NCBI RefSeq assembly: GCF_053078305.1
Contig: NZ_CP166879.1
DNA: 64,000 nucleotides
Reading direction: 5' to 3' (one strand)
Shown: piece by piece, positions 1 through 16,123 of the stretch
How positions within the stretch are numbered: the stretch's first letter is position 1
Layout: each line of letters begins with the position of its first letter
Notes under the pieces: generated by a model
Told to the model about the DNA's origin: nothing
Databases searched by the model: none
The model's input: the letters and a program-made list of their open reading frames with translations, nothing else
Translations under genes and position numbers: made by a program

Positions 1-1279
1 GAACCTGTCCGTGTGCCGCCAGTTCGCCGGTGGTACTGACAGTCAGGTTGCCCGCTGCCGCCAGACGTCCGTCATCTTTCACCCCGGCGGCCAGCAGACT
101 CCGCTCACCGCCGGTCAGACGCGCTGTCTGAATCCGGGTGTTGCGACGTGATGCCACAGAGCCTGTATGGGTGAAGACACCATCACTCTGTATCTGCGTA
201 TCCTGCCCCGCATAAACAGAACCACTGTTATGCAGCTCCCGGGTTGTCGCCAGATGCACATCCGTTTTCGCACTGATACTGCCACTGTTTTCAATACGTC
301 CGTCAGCCGTCAGGGTAACCGCCCCTGCCTGTGCACCAATATGACCGGCGTTACGAACACCCACCCCCGTTTCCGTACCGACAAGGCGAATTTTTCCGGC
401 ATACATTCCGCCAAGACTGGCCACATCCAGTGCCATCTGAGGCTGTGAAGAGACATCACCGGTCTTTTTCTCAATCTGCCCGTGCGCGATATCCACATTG
501 TTACGTCCTGTGGTCACTTTCAGATCCTGCGCCCAGATACCCGCATTAATCTTCACAGACCGGGCAATGATATCGGTATAATCCGTGCGCGAGGCATCCA
601 TCCCTTTGCCCGTAACCTGAATCTCACCACGTTCAACACTGAATCCGGTCAGACTGCCGTTTTTCATCTGCGGCTGCCCCGTGGTCAGCGTGGCCCGGTT
701 CGCATTAATAAAACCGCACCCGTCGCAACTGATGCCGGCCGGGTTCGCAATCACCACCTGCGCCTTTTTACCGGCAACCTCAACAAAACCGTTCAACTGG
801 CTGGGATTGCGACTGTTCACTTCATTAAGAATGATTCTGGCCTCTCCCTTAGCCAGCCACGGGTTCCCGGCCACCATGCCACCCAGTTGAGTCTGCACAT
901 TGTTATGGGCATTATTCAGAATGACGCCCTGGTTACCGACGTCGAACTGGCTGTATGCGTTATGTGAAACCCCGCCGGCAGAAGGCGTCTGAATATTCAC
1001 CTGCGGAATGCCGCTGGCCGTCTGCGTAATCGTGGGCTGCTGATACCCTGGTGCGCCATGGTCTGCGACAATGCCTGCAGCACTGACAGAATGCACCATC
1101 CCCGAAGCCAGCCACAAAGAGAATGCAAGCGGCGTGACACGGCAGATACGTTGCCTGTGTGGATATCCTGTGCGGGAGGACAGTGATGTACCGGCGCGAC
1201 CGGAACGGGCAATATCTGCCACCACCATCAGCATTCCCCGGGCTTTGTTAAAAATAATGCGGTAACAATTTCTGTTCAT
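1..1279 (-). CDS. cdiA: TpsA/CdiA-like large exoprotein, N-terminal part only (start at 1279, continues beyond window start)
   Basis: Manual minus-strand translation from ATG at 1279..1277 gives MNRNCYRIIFNKARGMLMVVADIARSGR (extended signal peptide region) followed by a TPS secretion domain with ANPAGISCDGCGFINANRATLTTG; frame stays open to position 1. Absent from the ORF track because no stop lies in the window. Confidence 0.8.
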   Translation of the reverse strand, partial: MNRNCYRIIFNKARGMLMVVADIARSGRAGTSLSSRTGYPHRQRICRVTPLAFSLWLASGMVHSVSAAGIVADHGAPGYQQPTITQTASGIPQVNIQTPSAGGVSHNAYSQFDVGNQGVILNNAHNNVQTQLGGMVAGNPWLAKGEARIILNEVNSRNPSQLNGFVEVAGKKAQVVIANPAGISCDGCGFINANRATLTTGQPQMKNGSLTGFSVERGEIQVTGKGMDASRTDYTDIIARSVKINAGIWAQDLKVTTGRNNVDIAHGQIEKKTGDVSSQPQMALDVASLGGMYAGKIRLVGTETGVGVRNAGHIGAQAGAVTLTADGRIENSGSISAKTDVHLATTRELHNSGSVYAGQDTQIQSDGVFTHTGSVASRRNTRIQTARLTGGERSLLAAGVKDDGRLAAAGNLTVSTTGELAAHGQV

Positions 1280-4732: not shown

Positions 4733-5392
4733 TCAGAGATGGTATGCCGGTACTTTGCGGGTTGTTCCTGTCAGGTTATCGTGCACCTCCACGGTCGTGG
4801 TCACCACCGGCATTCCGGCCTTTCTCAGCCTCAGAACATCAGCCGCAATACGCTGACTGCCAAACCAGAACAGGCCGTCCAGTGCAGTCACCAGTAAACC
4901 CGCCTCCAGTGCATACTTCAGCCGTTCACGGGGCGCTTTCACTTCCCGGGCAACCTGCTGATATGGCAATGATGTGTTTTCATTCCCAACCACGCGACGA
5001 ATACGGTGAGACAGATGATACCGGAATGTATCCGGCACACCAGAAAGGCTGGCCTTCAGGCTGTACACGCAGCCAAACCGTTTATCGTTAAACACCACAT
5101 TTTTCTGACTGATGTCCCATTCTTCACGCAGCGCGGCAATCAGTTGTGGTGTCCGGGTAAGCAACAAGCGAAAAGGCAGTTCAAAACTGGTGACGTAATC
5201 CACATTCAGCAGTGCAATACGCAGCCGTTCTTCTGGCCCGGCCTCTGTCTGCCGGCACTCCTCCAGAACATCCTGCCACTGCTGGCGAAGACAGGGCGAT
5301 TCGTTCCGTTCTGTAAAACAGTATTTATCCGCCAGATAGTCAATTCGTGTATGCATACTGAAGAGTATTCCGTATAAAGATTCAGCTGGCAA
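4733..5392 (-). CDS. Hypothetical protein (219 aa), possibly the 5' part of a frameshifted gene
   Basis: ORF in the minus-strand gene block; the next ORF starts 21 nt downstream in a different frame. Confidence 0.4.
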   Translation of the reverse strand: MPAESLYGILFSMHTRIDYLADKYCFTERNESPCLRQQWQDVLEECRQTEAGPEERLRIALLNVDYVTSFELPFRLLLTRTPQLIAALREEWDISQKNVVFNDKRFGCVYSLKASLSGVPDTFRYHLSHRIRRVVGNENTSLPYQQVAREVKAPRERLKYALEAGLLVTALDGLFWFGSQRIAADVLRLRKAGMPVVTTTVEVHDNLTGTTRKVPAYHL

Positions 5393-5444
5393 AACTTTAT
5401 CAGTCTGTAAAAACTAACGGAAGAGTCGATATTTCTCCCGTCCA

Positions 5445-5942
5445 TCACCGGATGATTGTTGCAATACCCCGTGGCATCAGAGACTGAACAGCCGTTTTTA
5501 ACGCAACGTATTGCTCTGATGTATCAGGCCGGACAACCCGAAAACACCTTTCCACCCGGCATTGTCCGCCAGCGCTTATCACCGGCCAGGTCTGTTGCAG
5601 TAAATCCGCCACTTGCGAACATGCTTCATCAACTGTAACACTGGCCCGCGGATGGCAAACACTCGTCTGGCTGAGCAGTAACAGGCAGCGTATTGTTGCT
5701 CCTCCATGTTGTTCCCGCAACCAGCGTAATACCACCGGCGATGATGGGCTGGCAGTGTGATTACGCACAGTAATAAGTTCATAAAAGGAAGTACAGAATG
5801 TCTGAATCTGTTGACCACAGACGCCTTCTGTCGAATGAAGTGTGAAGTGGATTGCCAGCAGATGTGGCCTGTGATCCACCGCCTGCTGCACAAAACGCCG
5901 GATTTCCCCCGGCTCTGAAAGTAAGGCTTCGGTTATTTGCAC
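5445..5942 (-). CDS. Hypothetical protein (165 aa)
   Basis: ORF only; may be a separate gene or a C-terminal remnant of the upstream Gp2-like gene. Confidence 0.35.
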   Translation of the reverse strand: MQITEALLSEPGEIRRFVQQAVDHRPHLLAIHFTLHSTEGVCGQQIQTFCTSFYELITVRNHTASPSSPVVLRWLREQHGGATIRCLLLLSQTSVCHPRASVTVDEACSQVADLLQQTWPVISAGGQCRVERCFRVVRPDTSEQYVALKTAVQSLMPRGIATIIR

Positions 5943-6291
5943 TATTTTATCTCTGTTGAATTTGGTTAAGTCGGTGCAGACTCATCAACACAAGTACGGT
6001 TCGATGCAAACAGCTGTGACTGGCAATATGAAAGGAATGATGAATCAGTCAGGATGACAAAGTGCCGTCTGACCGGAGGGGACACAGGAAGATTCACGGA
6101 GGGACCAGCACTAGGGAACAGCGCCACATCCCGGGTGGTACTGCTTTGATGCGCCCGGTGACACAAAGCCCGGATTGTTCCAGACATCCTGAATCAAACG
6201 CCCCAGATCAGGGGCGTCGAAATATGCCTCTCTGGCCATTATATTCCGGCGTACAGGTAGCAGGTCAGAAGTGACAATGCGTCACCTAACG

Positions 6292-6858
6292 TTAAAAGTC
6301 ACTACACCCAAGATGACGTTCAACAGCACCATGCGATTCAATGTAAGCCCGGGCTGTCTGTTCCAGTACACCAGGCTCAGCGTTGTATGTGTTAGCTGCA
6401 TCAAATACCAACGACAACACTTCAGGATACACAACCAGATGTGTAATGGAGTTATCTTCACTCAATACTTTTCCCCACGCCTGCTCAATCAGATTTCTTA
6501 GAACCACCACCTCACGACTCTTACACCAGACATCGTTATTAAGTAGCAGCACCATAAGATAAGGAGTGGTATCGTTAGCCACAGCTTCCCTACTCCAGAG
6601 ATAATATAAAGGGGTGGGCTCAACAGATTTATCTTTACGTCTCTTGCACTGCAAATATTCAGAAATGAGTCTATGCAGTTCACCAGTAAAATCAGCCATC
6701 AGAGAGGGAATGGCCTTATTAATACCCTGCCCTGGTATTAATTTAAATTGTAATAATTTAATTTCAGGATGTGTAGCTGCAGCCCGATACAGAGTTGCAA
6801 GGACACACTTTTGCCAGAGGGCGTTACAGGAAAGCTTAACATTTGATTCTGTATACAT
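6292..6858 (-). CDS. YagK/YfjJ-family (inovirus Gp2-like, DUF3296) protein
   Basis: 188 aa; segments HPEIKLLQFKLIPG, LYYLWSREAV and YLMVLLLNNDVW resemble my recollection of E. coli YfjJ/YagK. Shorter than typical (about 280 aa), so possibly truncated. Confidence 0.5.
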   Translation of the reverse strand: MYTESNVKLSCNALWQKCVLATLYRAAATHPEIKLLQFKLIPGQGINKAIPSLMADFTGELHRLISEYLQCKRRKDKSVEPTPLYYLWSREAVANDTTPYLMVLLLNNDVWCKSREVVVLRNLIEQAWGKVLSEDNSITHLVVYPEVLSLVFDAANTYNAEPGVLEQTARAYIESHGAVERHLGCSDF

Positions 6859-7329
6859 AATAAATCACCTTACAGTTACAACAGGTCAAAAACCGCTGTA
6901 GCCAGAGTTACGCTGGCCTGATGCTTTAGTGTCGAGCTTCGTCAGATAATCCAGACGTGCCAATAAGCGCTGATACTGCTCAGGGAAATCAGGAGCATTA
7001 ATATCCTGGATGTCACGTCCATTAGCAGGGAAATGAACAATGCAGCCCCCTGGATTAACTATGCAGAAATCATCCTGAGGCACTGATAAATACGGAGAGG
7101 ACTCTCGCGTATGGTTGATTGACACCACAGTGCGAATTCGGCGAATGCGAGATCACGGTACGATTCCGCACCACACTACCAATCAATACCCCGGGTTTTA
7201 TTCAGGTAAGCAGGACTGCGGATATCCGGTGTCGCGCCTTTGTGTCACGAACGGGGTGGGTGCGAAACACCAGATAAAATACAGGTTGGCAATACCTCTG
7301 AACGCCCTGAGCAGGTCGGGCATTTCGGA

Positions 7330-7755
7330 TTAAGTACTCGCACCTCCGCAGTCCTCAAACAAGTCTGGCTGGTAGCTGTAAACAGACTTCGTACATACCG
7401 CTCTGCAATAAATCCCCGTACCACAGGCCTCACAGAACTTCTTCCCATGAAAAAACTGCTCACACATCACACAATGCCACTCCAGCACGACCGGTAATGG
7501 CGATAAAAACATCGCCATATCCTCAATGTAAGGGTGGGACTTCTCCGGATTCAGCACCACACAGTCCGCCTTCTGTTGCTCACTCAGGGCATGTAAATCA
7601 TGCTCAAACCACGCCCCCTGAGCATCTGTCTGCAGAATCAACCGGCCATGGCAGGAAAGGCAGAAACACTGCCGGATATTTCTGCTGAGCGCAGAGTCGG
7701 CACTGATAATGTGCTCACCCGGCGTGATCCCCAGCCCCGTTTTTATACCGTTCAT
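7330..7755 (-). CDS. Zinc-ribbon protein, paralog B (141 aa)
   Basis: Cys clusters CFCLSCHG and WHCVMCEQ...CEACGTG, plus WFEH and LPVV motifs shared with the upstream paralog; start overlaps the upstream stop by 4 nt (ATGA). Confidence 0.55.
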   Translation of the reverse strand: MNGIKTGLGITPGEHIISADSALSRNIRQCFCLSCHGRLILQTDAQGAWFEHDLHALSEQQKADCVVLNPEKSHPYIEDMAMFLSPLPVVLEWHCVMCEQFFHGKKFCEACGTGIYCRAVCTKSVYSYQPDLFEDCGGAST

Positions 7756-8135
7756 TCTGCTCCCCCCTCCTCACTGAAGCGCCCGGTCTGGCAGTGTGTG
7801 CAGTACTGCTCCCCATAATAATCGTGGTGACATTGCCTGCAGTGCCAGCTGGCTTTACGTACTACGGGTAAGGCATCCGGGACGAATTGCTGCAGACGTT
7901 TAATCAACCGTATTTCTCTGCGTTCCGGCCTGACATAAGGGCACTCATGACCGTGCTCCGTCAGCCCTTCGTCAGCGTGTTCAAACCAGGGCCGTTCAGT
8001 GTCGTATTGCGGGTGGTATCTGAGTGCACTGCCGCAAAGGTGGCAGGTGTAGCTATCGTAAGGTGCAGTCTGTGCGGTACGGGCACCGGTCAGACGTCCG
8101 TTGCCATCAAGTGCGAGAAAAGATTTTGCGTACAT
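7752..8135 (-). CDS. Zinc-ribbon protein, paralog A (127 aa)
   Basis: Cys clusters CHLCGS and WHCRQCHH...CTHCQTG with WFEH motif; GAGGAA ribosome-binding site upstream of ATG at 8135. Confidence 0.55.
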   Translation of the reverse strand: MYAKSFLALDGNGRLTGARTAQTAPYDSYTCHLCGSALRYHPQYDTERPWFEHADEGLTEHGHECPYVRPERREIRLIKRLQQFVPDALPVVRKASWHCRQCHHDYYGEQYCTHCQTGRFSEEGGAE

Positions 8136-9107: not shown

Positions 9108-9338
9108 GTTTCTTCCTCGTGTTCTGTAACACAGGAAGAAGCGCTGGCGTAATTTTTGAAGAAAACGTTATCACACGAAGACGTGCAAGTTCACAACTCC
9201 CCGGGCGCCACAGAGAAAGTGGGAGCACACCCGGGTATCAGAACCATACAGAGAACGGCATACGTGACTGTCAATCACAGCGCAGATAATATCTGATATG
9301 ATGTCATTGTGACGACTGTACTTCATCAGAAACATTTA

Positions 9339-9551
9339 TCAGGTAACATATTTCCAGACTGAAGCGGGAACACGATCGTAAAGTTTGTTCATGGTCAGTT
9401 CTGCCAGCCGGTGATCGACCGCAGAGTTGAAGGCTTCCATCTCCGCTGGAGTAAGCTTATAACGCGTGTGGGAAATCACTTTTTCCAGTGTCTCCCGGGA
9501 TGAACAACGACGGAACTGATACAGCCAGTCTTCTTTGGTCTTAACTTCCAT
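9339..9551 (-). CDS. Hha/YmoA-family modulator paralog (70 aa)
   Basis: C-terminal [22 protein letters not shown] is near-identical to the Hha signature as I recall it; start ATG at 9551 chosen inside the longer 117 aa ORF. Confidence 0.75.
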   Translation of the reverse strand: [70 protein letters not shown]

Positions 9552-9699
9552 TATCCTCTCGTTATTTTGTGCTGTGATTAACGTTAACATAATACCGTCA
9601 GAATAACGTATTCTGACGTCATCCCGGAAGTCTTTCCACTTTCCTGTCTCTCCGGTAATAAAACATTTTAAATGCTGAAGGCATAACGCCATAACCAGA

Positions 9700-10190
9700 T
9701 ATTACAAGTAACGTGGCGTTACACGTGTTAATGCATTACAGAAGTAACAGAGACAATCAGATAGTAAACAACACTCCGGAAGACTGTTTAATGGCATAGG
9801 TATACTTTTTACGATCACAATATTATATCACTACCAAAATTCATCAGGTGAACTGCAAAAGCAAAACATTAACAGTTCTCCCTCAACCACCGTTATCCAC
9901 ACTATTGACACTGACGATTCATACTCTTATTTAGCCAGAATAGCCTCCACACAACAGGCATTACTTAACAAAGTACATTACAGTCAGTGTGTGTACATGA
10001 CAGATTTATATTCAGGTGTTACGAGATTACATTACAGCAGAGAGAGTTAAGGACAGAGTTACAAGTACTACTACAGAGAATATCTCTGTACAGATACTTC
10101 TATGAGCATATCTTTATGAGAGATCCGTCTACAGGATTGGGTTACAAGGTGGAATTACAGAATTACAGGGTTCATTTACATAACCATACT
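9700..10190. repeat. AT-rich divergent intergenic region with about ten degenerate TTACA(G/A) repeats
   Basis: ATTACAG at about 9734, 9975, 10028, 10153, 10161; GTTACAAG at 10057 and 10141; related copies at 9710 and 9719; lies between the minus-strand block ending at hha and the plus-strand block starting at 10503. Confidence 0.6.
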
Positions 10191-10502
10191 TCTATAAATA
10201 ATACTAATTAACCTTAATTATTTTTTAATAGTACATGAACTGCCTGTAGCTGTAACGACAAATCACCCAAAATGAAAAATACTGGTTATCACGGTTCAGA
10301 GAACTCGTATAAGTACCTCCCCCCTGAGCAATGCTTCATTTTCTGTGGTTCTATGTGATAGAGTTATGCTGAGTACAGTGGCAGTAACCCTGCTTTCCAC
10401 CACTCAATGACAAAACACACAAAAAATTAATTATATGAATTAACAGTGTTTTTTATGGAATGTTATGCATATCAACCAATATGATTAACAGAAAACTTCA
10501 TC

Positions 10503-11294
10503 ATGACAACACGTATAACTTTCAATATGACCAGTGATGAGACGCTGCGAATTGTGGATGAGTACTGTCATACCCACAAACTTTCGCGCTCTAAGGTAAT
10601 CGACGCATTACTCAGCGCCACAGCACCTGTCCTTAACGATATTAACTGTTATTATCAACTTGCAGGCAAACTGCAGTCACGCTTATTAAATGGAGTGTAT
10701 CAACGGGATCTTCCTCACAAACGCAATGTCGTCAGTGCAGAGAAGTATTGTCTGGAAATCTGGGAAAACAAACTTTTCACCAAAAGAATCCTGGAGTTTG
10801 ACAGTTCAAATGGTGTTCTATACGCGCTGAAACATAAAAGACACTATCGCCGGGATAAGATGATTGGACGGGTTGAAAGCCGGCGTATCAAAGACATTTG
10901 CGAATACCAGATGCAACTGTCCGGGGAGAAGGCAAAATATGCCTGTTTTATTTATATTGAAAGAACAATATACAATCACGATAATCCATCCGGTGAAACA
11001 CCTGTAAAAGCGGCTGTTGGTAATGCAGTCATCCTGCTGGCAAAAGACGTGATATATGACGAGTACTTTTTTGATCTGCGGCAGTCATTTTTCGTGAGCG
11101 TTAAAGATTTGATGGCCTCTGGCGCAAAAGGTATTCCGGAGACACAGAAATATCCGGACGTTTATTGCTGGATCCCGCTTTTCTCCATAAATTCCGGCGT
11201 GGTCATTACCCCGGTCTATAAAATTGATCCCCGGAAACCCGTAACGGTAAAAAAACCGGATCAGATCACTGTTGTTTGTAATTACAGAGAATAA
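10503..11294 (+). CDS. Hypothetical protein with N-terminal ribbon-helix-helix-like domain (263 aa)
   Basis: N-terminus TRITFNMTSDETLRIVDEYCHTHKLSRSKVIDALL has a beta-strand plus two-helix RHH pattern; the remaining 220 aa is unrecognised. Confidence 0.5.
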   Translation: MTTRITFNMTSDETLRIVDEYCHTHKLSRSKVIDALLSATAPVLNDINCYYQLAGKLQSRLLNGVYQRDLPHKRNVVSAEKYCLEIWENKLFTKRILEFDSSNGVLYALKHKRHYRRDKMIGRVESRRIKDICEYQMQLSGEKAKYACFIYIERTIYNHDNPSGETPVKAAVGNAVILLAKDVIYDEYFFDLRQSFFVSVKDLMASGAKGIPETQKYPDVYCWIPLFSINSGVVITPVYKIDPRKPVTVKKPDQITVVCNYRE

Positions 11295-11676
11295 TTTCAG
11301 TCTTCTCCGTTCACCGCAACAGTGTTTACCTCTGCTTTATCTTCCTTTCAGTAAATACAAACCACAGCTCTGGCAGGTACAGGGCGTGGTTTATCTCCGA
11401 TACTCCCCTGCGCAGTAATAATCATCACTGAAAATACTGATTCCGTCACGGCAAAACGCCATCCCATATTCCGGCAACACAAAATCATCTTCCGTTTATA
11501 CCGGCTTCACTGACAAAACAGACAACCTGTATTGCCTGTACACAACAGTTTCTCTCCTGGCAGGAATATTCCTCAACTTTTTTACGTTTCTCCCCGGTTG
11601 TTATGCCGGTGAAGGTGGTGCGTCGTTTTCATCACCAACGCCGGTTGAGATTAACAACATCCGGAGGAACATTTTC

Positions 11677-11883
11677 ATGAAGACCCCAGTTTCGCTGATG
11701 GATGACCAGATGGTCGACATGGCGTTTATCACTCAACTGACCGGCTTAACCGATAAGTGGTTTTATAAGCTCATCAAAGATGGTGCCTTTCCGGCCCCCA
11801 TCAAACTCGGCCGCAGCTCCCGATGGCTGAAAAGTGAAGTGGAAGCCTGGTTGCAGGCGCGTATTGCACAATCCCGTCCGTAA
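11677..11883 (+). CDS. alpA: AlpA-family prophage transcriptional regulator
   Basis: 68 aa; helix-turn-helix segment FITQLTGLTDKWFYKLIKDGAFPAPIKLGRSSRWLKSEVEAWL typical of AlpA; GGAGG ribosome-binding site at 11664. Confidence 0.8.
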   Translation: MKTPVSLMDDQMVDMAFITQLTGLTDKWFYKLIKDGAFPAPIKLGRSSRWLKSEVEAWLQARIAQSRP

Positions 11884-11968
11884 TTACTGACCGTTATCCG
11901 TTCAACCGCAGCGAATACACTATCCGGCCTCCGGAGGCATTCTGCTGCGTGCTAAAGGAGAGAATATT

Positions 11969-12541
11969 ATGCAAAAACTTGAAAACCGGTGTGATCTGCT
12001 GCTAATTCAGCATCAGAAATGGATGGCAAGTGTAACCCGGTTTATTGTCGCTCATGGAATGGGCTCTCCGCATCTTCATGGTTATCACCGCCTGACCCTG
12101 GCTCACTTTTTTCTACCGGAAAAAGGCACCATCATCTCAGTGGCACCACAGGGACTCTATCAGGTCGTCAACCCGGGAACGCCACCGTTCATTCCTGCCA
12201 TTCAGGAAGGGTTAATGACCAGCATTCAGACCCATGAAATCATGCTGCTTACGCATTTTAATCTGGGCGGCGTTTTACTCAGTGAGCTACATCGTCTGGG
12301 CGAAAGCCGGCTGGCAAACAGGCTGAACAGTCTGCTCCGGCGTTTCGAAGATCGCGATCTCTACCACACGCTGATATGGCTGTGCTGGTATGATCTGATG
12401 TGTGCCCACTCCATGCAGCCCTGGACTGAAGAGTTAAAGCATAAATCACACACAGAGCTTGAAAGCTGGGCTGTGGCGCGCAAACGGGAAAAGCGCGAGC
12501 TTGAACTGATGATTGACGAGTATCTGTTATACGCCTGTTGA
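11969..12541 (+). CDS. Hypothetical protein (190 aa)
   Basis: ORF with AAAGGAG ribosome-binding site immediately downstream of alpA; no family recognised. Confidence 0.45.
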   Translation: MQKLENRCDLLLIQHQKWMASVTRFIVAHGMGSPHLHGYHRLTLAHFFLPEKGTIISVAPQGLYQVVNPGTPPFIPAIQEGLMTSIQTHEIMLLTHFNLGGVLLSELHRLGESRLANRLNSLLRRFEDRDLYHTLIWLCWYDLMCAHSMQPWTEELKHKSHTELESWAVARKREKRELELMIDEYLLYAC

Positions 12542-14121
12542 TTCATAACGCTCCCGGGATTCCTTCCTCATCGTTGCACACAACCGGACGGCTATCTGTG
12601 GCAGTCCGCCAAATGACCCTCGCCGCATTTCGTTCTGCTGAAAACGGTACGTAGCCAGTGATACCGGAATTTCCGGAGAGGGTCGCAGGTATATTGCTTC
12701 TGTGCAATTGATGCTTATTTACATTGGATGTGGTTATTTCTGCATCCAATGCTATCGGAAAGAGATCAACCAGCAAATGGTTCCTCAAATCGTATTGATA
12801 TTTACCCGGTGCATTGAGCACCTCCATCTGACACTCCGTTCCCGCATCAAACGGCTGAACCGGAAAACGATTTGCTTTTCACGCTCCGTGGAAATTCACG
12901 AAAAAGTTATTGGGTCATTCATCGAAAAACACATGTTCTGCTGACTGGAGCCATCACCCGGAAATATACGTCAACTGAACAATAACGATTTTTTCTTTAT
13001 GGGATCCCATACACTTTCCCATACCCCTCTGAAAATCAGTCATCAACTCACCAACACATCTTCTGAAATCTGTATTAAACTTATTGCTTAAATAGATGAT
13101 ATAACACATCTTCCATTGCACGGAATCAGCGAAAACTGTCATTCTGGCAATCTTAACAAGATCATTTATCGGTTAATTTTATCAGTAAACAATGGAATAT
13201 CACACTGATAAAATGAACATTCAGGGTAAGATGATAAAATTCACATAAAAAATGCTGAAGATTATTTATTTCATGCAGATAAACGATAAAATACAAGAGA
13301 GTATATTTTTCAGTGTAAGAGTCAATCGTTCATCTCCACTGACGATCACGGTCAGCACATAAACAAAGTGAGTCCTCCTGCTTAGTCATTGCGTATCAGA
13401 AACTAAAAAACAAAAGATTCTGTAAACAACGTGACATTTTTTATGACATTTCCCGAATACAGATATATCAACAAACAGTAGTCAGCGTTGAATTAATAAG
13501 TTTTACAGGGCTATACGTATCTTATAAAACCACTCAACGACCATCATCACCTGACTATTTAGCGGGAGTATCATCTGTATAAATCCCTAAATAATAACAC
13601 CTGTTATTAAAATAAGAATGCTGTCAGCAGTAAATTATTAACATAACACCTGTCCACTCTATCTGTTCTTCTAACTCAACCGGCATCGAAAATATTGCCT
13701 GATTAGTGCATCATAGCCTTCTTTTTTCTTTCCCGACCATCAAAACAAATACAACATTTACAACCACACAATAAAACAAAACTAAAACATAAGATTAACA
13801 ACACCAATCAACAGGAAAACACTGAATATTGAGGTGCCCTGTAACCTGGAGAGCGCATACGGCGCATGTGATCAACACAGCCCATTCTTTTCTGTCATCC
13901 CCCAAATGCAGAACAAACAAGCATAACCTAATGAATATAAAATAAAATATTATTTTTCACCATCATAAAAACATCAATGTATCTTTATATAAAAACACTG
14001 ACAACATGACATAAACATTTAAAAACATAAACAAATCACAACAAAAACATTTGATAATCACTTAGTGACAAAATAAAATTGAGACGATTTTGTTATAAGA
14101 GAGGCGCCATGGAGTGAGATA

Positions 14122-15141
14122 ATGAATAACGAACAGATGCTTATCAAATGCAAAGATCCCCGTAAATGTCGGTTTTATGCTGAATATCTGAATCACAAAT
14201 ACCCCAATGAATTCCCTCAGTTTGCGCCTGACAACCCACAAAACTGTATCAGAAATGTTAATGCGTTTTTAAAAGAAAAGTATTGTAATACTTCAAACAA
14301 TTCTTTTGGTGTTTTTGGTTCGACTGCAGAAGAAGCTCTCAGCAAAGAAATTAATGAACTTGAAATTATTGCAGGGCAGGCAATACTGCCTGAAGAGAGT
14401 TTTCTCTGGTTGAAAACTGACGAACTTGCGACTTTCTTTACCTGGACTACTATTTATCTGTCGAAGGAAGACCATACAAATTTCCCGGAAATAAACCATA
14501 ATTCATCAGGGATAAAAAACGGAATTGAAGTCAGAAAAAGACGAACAGTTACCGATGAAACGTTAAATACTTACAAAAAAAGTAACCTTCCGGATAATCC
14601 ATCATCCCATAACGAACGAATAAAAGTAATCATTTTATATTTTGATTCCTGTCATTCTTTAATTAATAAAAATGCAAAAAGCATATACCTCGAGGAACTC
14701 AGGCAGACGTGGCTTAAAAATAAAAGCGCTTGTCAAAAGTTTAAGTGGCTCCTTCCTGACGATGATGAAATGTGTCAGTGGTTCTGGACAAGACTGAAAC
14801 AAAAACAGGATGAAACACATCCGGTACATAACCCGGTGACCCGGTGGTTCATACCATCTTCAACGAAAGAATATTATCTTGCCTCTCTCGTCGCCTTTGC
14901 TTTATGGAAAGAGGCACCTGATACCATTGAACTGTTCAGAACACGCATAAATCATGCCTGGCATCAAAAAAAACAAAAAGACAAATATCGGAATGATGGT
15001 AAAAAGGCTATTAATATACATATAAGAAGCAATGCGAAAGAAATGCTTGATGAACTCAGAACTGTTTACGGTCTGAGAACAGGAGAGTTTTTTGAAATGC
15101 TGATTACAGAAAAATATCTTGAACACAAGCGAAGGAAGTAA
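14122..15141 (+). CDS. Hypothetical low-GC, Lys-rich protein (339 aa) with C-terminal RHH-like segment
   Basis: ORF with GGAGTGAG ribosome-binding site, preceded by about 1.1 kb of ORF-free AT-rich DNA; C-terminus INIHIRSNAKEMLDELRTVYGLRTGEFFEML looks ribbon-helix-helix-like. Confidence 0.5.
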   Translation: MNNEQMLIKCKDPRKCRFYAEYLNHKYPNEFPQFAPDNPQNCIRNVNAFLKEKYCNTSNNSFGVFGSTAEEALSKEINELEIIAGQAILPEESFLWLKTDELATFFTWTTIYLSKEDHTNFPEINHNSSGIKNGIEVRKRRTVTDETLNTYKKSNLPDNPSSHNERIKVIILYFDSCHSLINKNAKSIYLEELRQTWLKNKSACQKFKWLLPDDDEMCQWFWTRLKQKQDETHPVHNPVTRWFIPSSTKEYYLASLVAFALWKEAPDTIELFRTRINHAWHQKKQKDKYRNDGKKAINIHIRSNAKEMLDELRTVYGLRTGEFFEMLITEKYLEHKRRK

Positions 15142-15211
15142 TTCATTACCTGTTACATTCTAAATAATCTCAGACAGATATTATCTCCGTGAATCCCCCG
15201 CCACCTTTCCG

Positions 15212-16123
15212 GTGCGCGGGGTTTTGTCTTTTTTCACCGGGAATACATGTATGAATCCGTCTGATGCCATTGAGGCAATTGAAAAACCGCTCTCCTCCCT
15301 GCCTTACTCACTTTCCCGTCACATCCTGGAACATCTGCGCAAACTCACCAGCCACGAACCCGTGATTGGCATTATGGGGAAAAGCGGGGCCGGTAAATCC
15401 TCACTCTGTAATGCACTGTTTCAGGGGGAGGTCACCCCGGTCAGTGATGTTCACGCCGGCACCCGGGAAGTGCGGCGCTTCCGTCTGAGTGGCCATGGTC
15501 ACAACATGGTTATCACTGACCTGCCCGGGGTGGGTGAGAGCCGGGACAGGGATGCAGAGTATGAAGCCCTGTACCGTGACATTCTGCCTGAACTTGACCT
15601 GGTGCTGTGGCTGATTAAAGCCGATGACCGTGCCATGTCTGTGGATGAGTATTTCTGGCGACACATCCTGCACCAGGGACATCAGCAGGTGCTGTTTGTG
15701 GTGACACAGGCCGACAAAACGGAGCCCTGCCATGAATGGGATATGGCCGGTATTCAGCCTTCTCCCGCACAGGCACAGAATATTCGCGAAAAAACGGAGG
15801 CGGTATTCCGTCTGTTCCGGCCCGTACATCCGGTTGTGGCCGTATCGGCCCGCACCGGCTGGGAACTGGATACGCTGGTCAGTGCGCTCATGACAGCGCT
15901 TCCCGACCATGCCGCCAGTCCCCTGATGACCCGCCTGCAGGACGAGCTGCGCACGGAATCTGTCCGCTCTCAGGCCCGTGAACAGTTTACCGGTGCGGTG
16001 GACCGGATATTTGACACGGCGGAGAGCGTCTGTGTTGCCTCTGTTGCCCGTACGGTTCTGCGTGCCGTCCGTGACACGGTGGTCTCTGTTGCCCGCGCTG
16101 TATGGAACTGGATTTTCTTCTGA
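15212..16123 (+). CDS. YeeP/YkfA/YfjP-family GTPase
   Basis: P-loop GIMGKSGAGKSS and G-domain motifs; conserved position upstream of flu. The track ORF starts at GTG 15212; the first ATG is at 15251. Confidence 0.8.
   Translation: MRGVLSFFTGNTCMNPSDAIEAIEKPLSSLPYSLSRHILEHLRKLTSHEPVIGIMGKSGAGKSSLCNALFQGEVTPVSDVHAGTREVRRFRLSGHGHNMVITDLPGVGESRDRDAEYEALYRDILPELDLVLWLIKADDRAMSVDEYFWRHILHQGHQQVLFVVTQADKTEPCHEWDMAGIQPSPAQAQNIREKTEAVFRLFRPVHPVVAVSARTGWELDTLVSALMTALPDHAASPLMTRLQDELRTESVRSQAREQFTGAVDRIFDTAESVCVASVARTVLRAVRDTVVSVARAVWNWIFF

Follow-up and report, generated by a model that had tools for sequence, protein, structure and literature searches.

A candidate autoregulated ribbon-helix-helix regulator in the backbone of CP4-44/CP4-57-like genomic islands

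The class of islands that includes CP4-44, CP4-57 and numerous pathogenicity and defence islands ranks among the most frequent kinds of mobile element of Escherichia coli and its relatives, and their regulation and movement are largely obscure. The closest described systems are the islands that combine an integrase (int), AlpA, an inovirus Gp2-like protein and RadC, including CP4-44, CP4-57 and CP4-6 of E. coli K-12 and a group in Pseudomonas that is linked to the transfer-messenger RNA (tmRNA) gene. The Pseudomonas islands form a widespread class that carries defence cargo, is not self-transmissible and is moved by jumbo-phage transduction (doi 10.1101/2024.08.29.610337). The islands considered here belong to the same class, with the same backbone and with defence cargo near the integrase. 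Our subject is a stretch of 64,000 nucleotides (nt) of contig NZ_CP166879.1, called the window below and used for all coordinates unless another locus is named, in which an AT-rich non-coding tract is followed by a gene for a protein of 339 amino acids (aa), the two occupying positions 12959-15141. We hold with moderate confidence that this gene encodes an autoregulated ribbon-helix-helix (RHH) regulator of the CP4-44/CP4-57-like island backbone, that a short palindrome just upstream is its operator, and that the tract is a control region. The RHH gene is not among the core genes mentioned in the Pseudomonas work (doi 10.1101/2024.08.29.610337), and a survey of islands in Shiga toxin-producing E. 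coli lists the same backbone genes without naming the 339-aa gene (PMC6174562).

Two further kinds of described system invite comparison. The families best matched by the strand-helix-helix of about 45 residues in our protein are the CopG/RepB-type plasmid repressors (PF01402, PF10723; IncFII CopB/RepA, NF010256), and the likeness may extend to a palindromic target over the regulated promoter, with autoregulation as the mode to be expected by analogy. Those repressors are single-domain proteins of 45-85 aa encoded together with a rep gene, whereas the present protein has 339 aa, with an extra region of about 290 residues, and its gene has a candidate promoter and a terminator of its own, lies on a chromosomal island and is not co-transcribed with a replication gene. 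The second likeness is to the switch regions of temperate elements, such as that of AlpA-controlled CP4-57 excision, in that a regulator gene and alpA diverge across a shared intergenic region with a candidate operator at the regulator promoter. Unlike those regions, the one described here is unusually long at 0.5-1.7 kb, is AT-rich and holds almost no conserved sequence, and its putative regulator is an RHH protein of new architecture rather than a helix-turn-helix protein of the CI/Cro type.

The place of the gene within the island is fixed. Members of its family occupy the same position in Edwardsiella tarda, Rahnella, Yersinia kristensenii, further loci and two plasmids, where AlpA, usually together with a YagK/YfjJ Gp2-like gene, is read leftward, a gene-free gap follows, and the family gene is then read rightward ahead of the backbone genes (a GTPase or DUF3944/WYL gene, DUF932, antirestriction, RadC, CbeA/CbtA and DUF4942). 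AlpA lies upstream in divergent orientation in all nine loci from outside E. coli, and in seven of them a Gp2-like gene is adjacent or next but one. The gaps measure 1089, 1557, 1377, 1128, 506, 592, 1675, 520 and at least 737 bp. The gene immediately downstream varies (GTPase, DUF3944, DUF932, a glycine-zipper protein or an integrase), and the synteny persists on plasmids and in an element reduced to int, AlpA and this gene family, the minimal form consisting of int, the homologue, AlpA and one more gene. The synteny typical of CP4-44/CP4-57-like (int-AlpA-Gp2-RadC-CbtA) islands is also seen in the window and in other E. coli copies. Because the gap recurs and the position is fixed across loci, we regard the AT-rich gap as a conserved feature of the island and the gene as one of its backbone genes. 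Defence cargo, by comparison, lies beyond AlpA toward the integrase, and includes a Gabija-like OLD-TOPRIM ATPase with a UvrD helicase, a restriction-modification methylase and a dynamin-like GTPase (Table 1).

The base composition of the module is conserved as well. Across eight loci from several genera the gap has 31-40% GC and the family gene 35-44%, as against 48-58% for the next gene in all but one low-GC locus, and the two plasmid copies show the same step. Since the low GC of gap and gene is kept in all loci, it is a conserved property of the module and not a mark of recent acquisition. The initial annotation of this DNA, which was made from the window sequence without database searches, had taken the low GC as the signature of recently acquired DNA. 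Horizontal acquisition is upheld by the position inside a CP4-44-like island with Ag43, a YeeP-type GTPase, CbeA/CbtA and its own hha gene.

The encoded protein, identical to WP_023145611.1, is Lys- and Asn-rich as first noted (10% Lys, 8.3% Asn). The description of it as an orphan, on the other hand, has to be abandoned. Its exact sequence is present on 885 contigs, under the names "transcriptional regulator", "hypothetical protein" and "replication regulatory protein RepB", and an exhaustive HMMER search of 1.84 billion representatives gave 305 clusters (50% identity) at E<=1e-3 and 114 at E<=1e-10, almost all of them 290-340 aa long and aligned over their full length; a word-indexed search returned close relatives only, in E. 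coli, Edwardsiella, Rahnella and Yersinia. The protein matches nothing in Pfam or NCBIfam at curated cut-offs, no housekeeping family included. The PHROGs collection gave a chance-level match only, and neither a set of 50,697 phage genomes nor IMG/VR contains a member of the family. A shallow-alignment scan of genome contigs had a single return, a 7.2 kb contig (JAIJJM010000108.1, L008; L numbers denote individual loci) from a metagenome-assembled genome labelled "Collinsella sp." that encodes a 96% identical copy and is almost certainly a binning or contamination artefact.

An AlphaFold2 model computed from 91 family members (predicted local distance difference test score, pLDDT, 90.8; predicted template modelling score, pTM, 0.86), which replaces a 7-sequence model with a pLDDT of 50, allows the C-terminal segment to be assigned. 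At the level of this model the C-terminal 48 residues are established as a ribbon-helix-helix: pLDDT is about 95 over residues 300-339, and the C-terminus superposes on the RHH domains of TacA3, PrpA, FitA and DinJ with deviations of 1.6-2.3 Å over 43-45 residues. The monomer model leaves the strand unformed, which is to be expected where a fold depends on dimerisation. Profile evidence agrees in the family, though not above the cut-off in the query itself, with PF10723 matching 22 of the 91 family members and PF01402 (RHH_1) five at E<0.01, close homologues carrying precomputed PF10723, and the RHH protein 2kel giving a profile match in the PDB. Family members have in common the sequence KKA[IL]N in the strand that would read the DNA. 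The RHH-like C-terminus suggested by the initial annotation is thus confirmed by superposition and by family Pfam matches. Foldseek comparison of the model with the PDB and BFVD gave nothing significant; no enzymatic or membrane domain is predicted, and the DNA-binding RHH is the only recognisable module. The architecture differs from that of RHH antitoxins (TacA, ParD/PrpA, FitA, DinJ), in which the RHH is N-terminal and the remainder binds a toxin from the same operon, whereas here it is C-terminal, and unlike in type II antitoxin operons a conserved terminator separates the gene from the next one, whose identity varies. Membership in the MatP family (four-helix bundle, RHH and coiled coil) was considered and rejected: profile-profile comparison aligns the RHH alone (probability 18%), the 339-aa protein has no coiled coil, and its palindrome differs from matS.

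Upstream of the gene, which has the good ribosome-binding site originally claimed for it (Table 1), lies the candidate operator. In E. coli the best promoter match is no more than some 45 nt ahead of the ATG, and the palindrome TCACT-N-AGTGA falls within its 17-nt spacer. The block that contains it, AATCACTTAGTGA, is invariant in E. coli, Edwardsiella and Rahnella at 51-78 nt before the ATG, although the proteins are only 50-58% identical and the flanks unalignable, and its Yersinia counterpart is a perfect 19-nt palindrome, TTAATCACTGAGTGATTAA. When non-low-complexity 10-mers common to at least three gaps were collected, only four were found, all of them overlapping words of AATCACTTAGTGA. 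Where E. coli copies diverge by 4-12% over the tract, the longest stretch without any change, of 30 nt (14039-14068), spans the operator block and TTGATA. More distant subfamilies, with proteins of about 30% identity, carry inverted repeats just upstream of the start codon, namely CTAC-ATA-GTAG (L009), CTAC-AAT-GTAG (L011) and ACTAC-TAT-GTAGT (L026), which share the 4+3+4 geometry of TCAC-TTA-GTGA; in L021 and L023 the corresponding sequence is AACTAC-N15-GTAGTT. Elsewhere in the window there are four sites with one mismatch to the operator versus 1.5 expected, an excess too weak to interpret.

The initial annotation had drawn attention to a different palindrome, aataacacctgttatt, which is indeed present in the tract, within a segment of 49 bp that has ATAACACCTGT direct repeats as its borders. 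One 49-bp repeat unit is deleted in strain E2 (L013), and RL465 (L015) has a 26-bp deletion. We reject this palindrome as a functional or conserved site, as it is deleted in some E. coli copies. An 11-bp tandem duplication (TAAAACAAAAC) occurs at about position 13772 in strain EC1515.

At its 3' end the gene is closed by an intrinsic terminator. Edwardsiella and Rahnella also have a hairpin and U-run there, whose sequence differs but is compensated, and this conservation through compensatory changes indicates that the gene is a discrete transcription unit. A conserved motif between stop codon and terminator, CTCAGACAGATATTATCTCC, recurs as CTCAGATAGATATTA(C/T)CTCC in Rahnella, nearly so in Edwardsiella, and as CTCAGATCTATACTACCCCC in L009. 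In the segment 15169-15242 (plus strand; motif CTCAGAYAGATATTAYCTCC) the terminator sits inside a predicted outer helix, of which the 3' arm overlaps the Shine-Dalgarno sequence of the GTPase gene; the pairing is UCUCC-GUGAA/UUCAC-CGGGA in E. coli and CCUCC-AUGAG/CUCAC-GGAGG in Rahnella. This helix may serve in translational control of the YeeP-type GTPase.

The tract itself is as AT-rich as had been described. It has 33.3% GC compared with 51.5% for the window, a value so low that only 0.2% of 1162-nt windows equal it; AT content is 66.7% over the 1162 nt of the tract and 63% in the gene, against 48.5% for the window, and there are eleven runs of five or more A or T. No gene is annotated under it in the 245 E. 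coli genomes that carry it. The statement that it holds no open reading frame (ORF) of 60 aa or more needs correction in one detail, a 62-aa minus-strand frame at 12954-13142 being the only one above that length; its start codon is lost or its frame shifted in other E. coli copies, as is true of two ORFs of 41-44 aa, and it is therefore not a gene. Divergence of the tract among E. coli copies (4-12%) is close to that of 4-fold degenerate sites in neighbouring genes, and the tract is unalignable with the equivalent gaps of Edwardsiella, Rahnella, Yersinia and L009 except at the candidate operator. Its only conserved properties appear to be length, low GC and the promoter-proximal operator. The tract is also a mosaic: strains EC03 (L014) and JE86-ST05 (L017) have identical genes and tracts that differ by 10%. 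In the wider comparison of EC03 with JE86-ST05 and SK1144 (L019), the 339-aa genes differ by 0-0.1% and the tracts by 10-12%, which points to a recombination breakpoint near the promoter and to a separate history for each of the two. The gap of the Rahnella locus L005 (at 7380-7398) and that of the distant island L009 (at 6259-6277) share an exact match of 19 nt (ATATATTACCAATCCGACA) but cannot be aligned elsewhere; the proteins of the two loci have 31% identity.

The left edge of the tract is an insertion sequence (IS) end and not a natural boundary. An IS1-family remnant ends in ...ctggagccatcacc at 12958, and the tract begins exactly there; this end is of the type of the IS1 inverted repeat. 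The IS1 pseudogene is annotated at this place in E. coli GPEC1176 and in every other E. coli copy fetched, and the junction is common to all E. coli copies examined, so that an old insertion must have cut the E. coli tract short or parted it from whatever once stood to its left. The tract is best read as a fast-evolving, AT-rich, non-coding control region of the island, shortened by IS1.

Our preferred reading, that of an autoregulated RHH regulator of the island backbone, builds on four demonstrated features: the protein has an RHH fold, the palindrome is conserved, the gene has the structure of a transcription unit, and the backbone is syntenic. According to this reading, the RHH domain would dimerise and, in the way of RHH dimers, which place a two-stranded sheet in the major groove of inverted or tandem repeats, read TCACT-N-AGTGA between the -35 and -10 elements of the gene's own promoter, and the protein would repress its own synthesis by blocking RNA polymerase. 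The all-alpha N-terminal region of about 290 residues may serve as an oligomerisation or signal-sensing module. Judging from the position of its gene, the protein probably also helps to balance the leftward alpA and Gp2-like genes, for excision and replication, against the rightward backbone genes. The tract would be what remains, after the old IS1 insertion, of the long non-coding region that parts the divergent modules in all relatives. It is plausibly AT-rich enough to be a target of H-NS/Hha, and could act as a loading zone for silencing by these proteins; the island encodes Hha. A bolder possibility, which is tentative and in our view rather unlikely, is that the protein is a master switch of int-AlpA-Gp2 islands, binding the AT-rich divergent region and holding alpA and Gp2 off until its N-terminal domain senses phage infection or a helper element and frees the island for excision and transfer. 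If this were true, the family would control very widespread islands that ferry defence systems and virulence genes among Enterobacterales.

Several observations weigh against regulation of this kind. The gene is frameshifted or split by IS1 in some E. coli (O6:H16 M9682-C1, L018; SCPM-O-B-12142, L020), and it is thus dispensable at least in fixed, decaying islands. Promoter-like matches in 12500-15400 are no commoner than in shuffled sequence, so the case for the promoter rests on its position and conservation, and a simple promoter scan finds none over the palindrome in Edwardsiella, Rahnella or Yersinia; the overlap of palindrome and predicted promoter is accordingly established for E. coli only. 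Among the distant loci some, L012, L022 and L025 among them, have an inverted repeat with a 15-nt spacer or an unclear one. The query protein reaches no more than 13.0 bits with PF10723, whose cut-off is 21, and its N-terminal region, which makes up 85% of the protein, is all-alpha in the model and has neither a solved structural relative nor an assigned function. The high-affinity H-NS motif TCGATAAATT, with up to two mismatches, has three matches in the tract versus 2.9 +/- 1.8 in shuffles. Literature searches found no study of the 339-aa protein or of any family member, and none of the papers retrieved lists the gene as part of the backbone.

The most serious rival to autoregulation is that the tract is an origin of transfer (oriT) or a rolling-circle double-strand origin nicked by the Gp2-like YagK/YfjJ protein, with the RHH protein as an accessory or copy-control factor like TraY, NikA or CopG/RepB and the downstream antirestriction, RadC and DUF932 genes as a "leading region". 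In its favour are the facts that the closest Pfam and NCBIfam RHH matches are replication-control proteins (RepB-RCR_reg, RepA/CopB, RepC), that a Gp2/REP_ORF2-G2P-like gene is the divergent neighbour across the gap in most relatives, and that antirestriction, DUF932 and RadC genes resemble the leading-region genes of plasmids. We nevertheless judge it improbable. An origin and its nuclease should co-evolve slowly, yet conservation of the gap is limited to the promoter-proximal palindrome even when Rahnella is compared with Yersinia, at 71% protein identity. The closest YagK/YfjJ gene of the window lies on the opposite strand at a distance of 5.2 kb, with IS2, hha and three further genes in between, and a palindrome at the gene's own promoter is in the typical place of an autoregulatory operator. 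Moreover, the related Pseudomonas islands were found to have no autonomous or conjugative transfer and to move by phage transduction only (doi 10.1101/2024.08.29.610337). We give still less credence to the idea that the tract specifies a non-coding RNA or forms a long, regulated 5' leader read from a distal promoter, with an A+C-rich, G-poor plus strand that would load Hfq or Rho. The plus strand of the tract shows a strong skew (A 39%, C 20%, G 13%), its GC skew falling as low as -0.35, and five of the six loci compared are A-rich and G-poor over the final 250 nt ahead of the ATG, but the Edwardsiella gap has no such skew and the promoter candidate leaves room for only a short leader. Nor did the search for small RNAs advised by the initial annotation lend support, as the tract has no Rfam match at E<=1; it has no internal terminator-like site either, it is not conserved across genera, and its divergence within E. 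coli is near-neutral, with indels.

That the gene is a standalone abortive-infection or anti-phage defence gene, silenced by H-NS until needed, was the suggestion originally made for it, and we now consider this very unlikely. An AT-rich, uncharacterised gene with its own candidate promoter and terminator, a large N-terminal domain to which no function is assigned, and an island class that carries Gabija-like, restriction-modification and dynamin-like defence cargo in relatives would all be in keeping with such a role. PADLOC-DB, however, yielded no family at E<=1, the absence of phage relatives offers no help, and the one module that can be recognised binds DNA. The gene moreover sits beside AlpA and Gp2 at a fixed backbone position in every locus, not in a variable cargo slot, is kept in the minimal int-AlpA island, and has at its promoter a conserved candidate operator that fits a regulator. 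Least probable of all, and scarcely credible, is that the tract is the remnant of a decayed gene. The IS1 at its left edge does attest to disruption, and it contains several ORFs of 41-62 aa; but each of its six frames holds 21-31 stop codons, a six-frame Pfam scan has no match at E<=1 and so gives no sign of a decayed known gene, no similar stop-to-stop segment of at least 25 aa is shared between the gaps of five loci, and equally long gaps without genes exist in genera that have no IS1 there.

If the RHH protein is the autoregulator that we propose, then what is new is a conserved backbone regulator that has no Pfam family, that lacks a solved structural relative over 85% of its length, and whose operator is predicted to the base. 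The predicted operator and regulator would together provide a concrete handle on how these islands stay silent or become active. The analysis also corrects the equation of an AT-rich orphan with a defence gene, since low GC is here a conserved feature of what appears to be a regulatory module.

Positions of the surrounding genes (Table 1) were taken from the annotation of the E. coli GPEC1176 chromosome (record locus minus 1501), which is 100% identical over the 3.1 kb around the tract and gene, with many other E. coli at 99.6%. In that annotation a CP4-44-like island is inserted beside ulaD.

Table 1. Coordinates of the tract, the gene, its control elements, the modelled protein regions and neighbouring features
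Feature	Position	Strand	Remarks
AT-rich non-coding tract	12959-14121		probable remainder of the island's central intergenic control region
Palindrome aataacacctgttatt	13591-13606		7-nt arms, 2-nt spacer
ATAACACCTGT direct repeats	13594-13604 and 13643-13653	plus	dispensable, indel-prone segment 13591-13653
Sigma-70-like promoter candidate	14051-14079	plus	TTGATA, 17-nt spacer, TAAAAT; 10/12 match, best in 12500-15400
Candidate operator AATCACTTAGTGA	14056-14068		contains palindrome TCACT-T-AGTGA at 14058-14068
Shine-Dalgarno GGAG	14111-14114	plus	7 nt before ATG, read from sequence
339-aa protein gene	14122-15141	plus	ORF; 36.8% GC
RHH domain coding region	14995-15138	plus	residues 292-339, strand KKAINIHIR
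Conserved motif CTCAGACAGATATTATCTCC	15169-15188	plus	just 3' of stop codon
Intrinsic terminator of 339-aa gene	15196-15234	plus	10-bp GC-rich stem, one bulge, then UUUUGUCUUUUUU
Protein: five helices	residues ~12-114		model
Protein: less confident linker	residues 115-160		model
Protein: second helical region	residues 163-291		model; conserved Trp-rich (W197, W209, W220, W262)
Protein: extended segment	residues ~295-302		model
Protein: two helices of ribbon-helix-helix	residues 303-316 and 320-338		model
IS66 and IS2 elements			first in island gene order; GPEC1176 annotation
YagK/YfjJ ("inovirus Gp2") genes, n=3	nearest 7171-7770	minus	GPEC1176 annotation
hha, island-encoded	9338-9550		GPEC1176 annotation
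Three small genes	10503-12541	plus	GPEC1176 annotation
IS1-family transposase remnant and terminal inverted repeat	12798-12958	plus	pseudogene annotated 12798-12944; left boundary of tract
YeeP-type GTPase gene	15251-16123		GPEC1176 annotation
Ag43, then DUF932, antirestriction, YeeS/RadC, DUF987, CbeA/CbtA, DUF4942	after GTPase		GPEC1176 annotation
Defence cargo on integrase side of AlpA	L003 1320-4908; L005 142-3743; L009 1-3976; L012 12-1565		Gabija-like pair (AAA_15/OLD-TOPRIM + UvrD), dynamin-like GTPase cluster, HsdM methylase

Three features of the wider island deserve mention. Its minus strand holds, at 4956-7770, three YagK/YfjJ (Gp2-like) genes or fragments and two zinc-ribbon genes, a multiplicity within a single island that suggests a composite of at least two related islands or an internal duplication. 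A second gene-free AT-rich gap, of about 950 bp and 34-38% GC, lies at 9551-10502 between hha and a gene for a hypothetical protein of 263 aa, and long AT-rich intergenic regions are a recurring feature of the island in the window. Finally, between the GTPase gene and Ag43, the plus strand at 16240-16476 matches the Rfam IS102 RNA (RF00124) with 74.7 bits against a gathering score of 46, a site equivalent to the IsrC small RNA locus that precedes flu in K-12.

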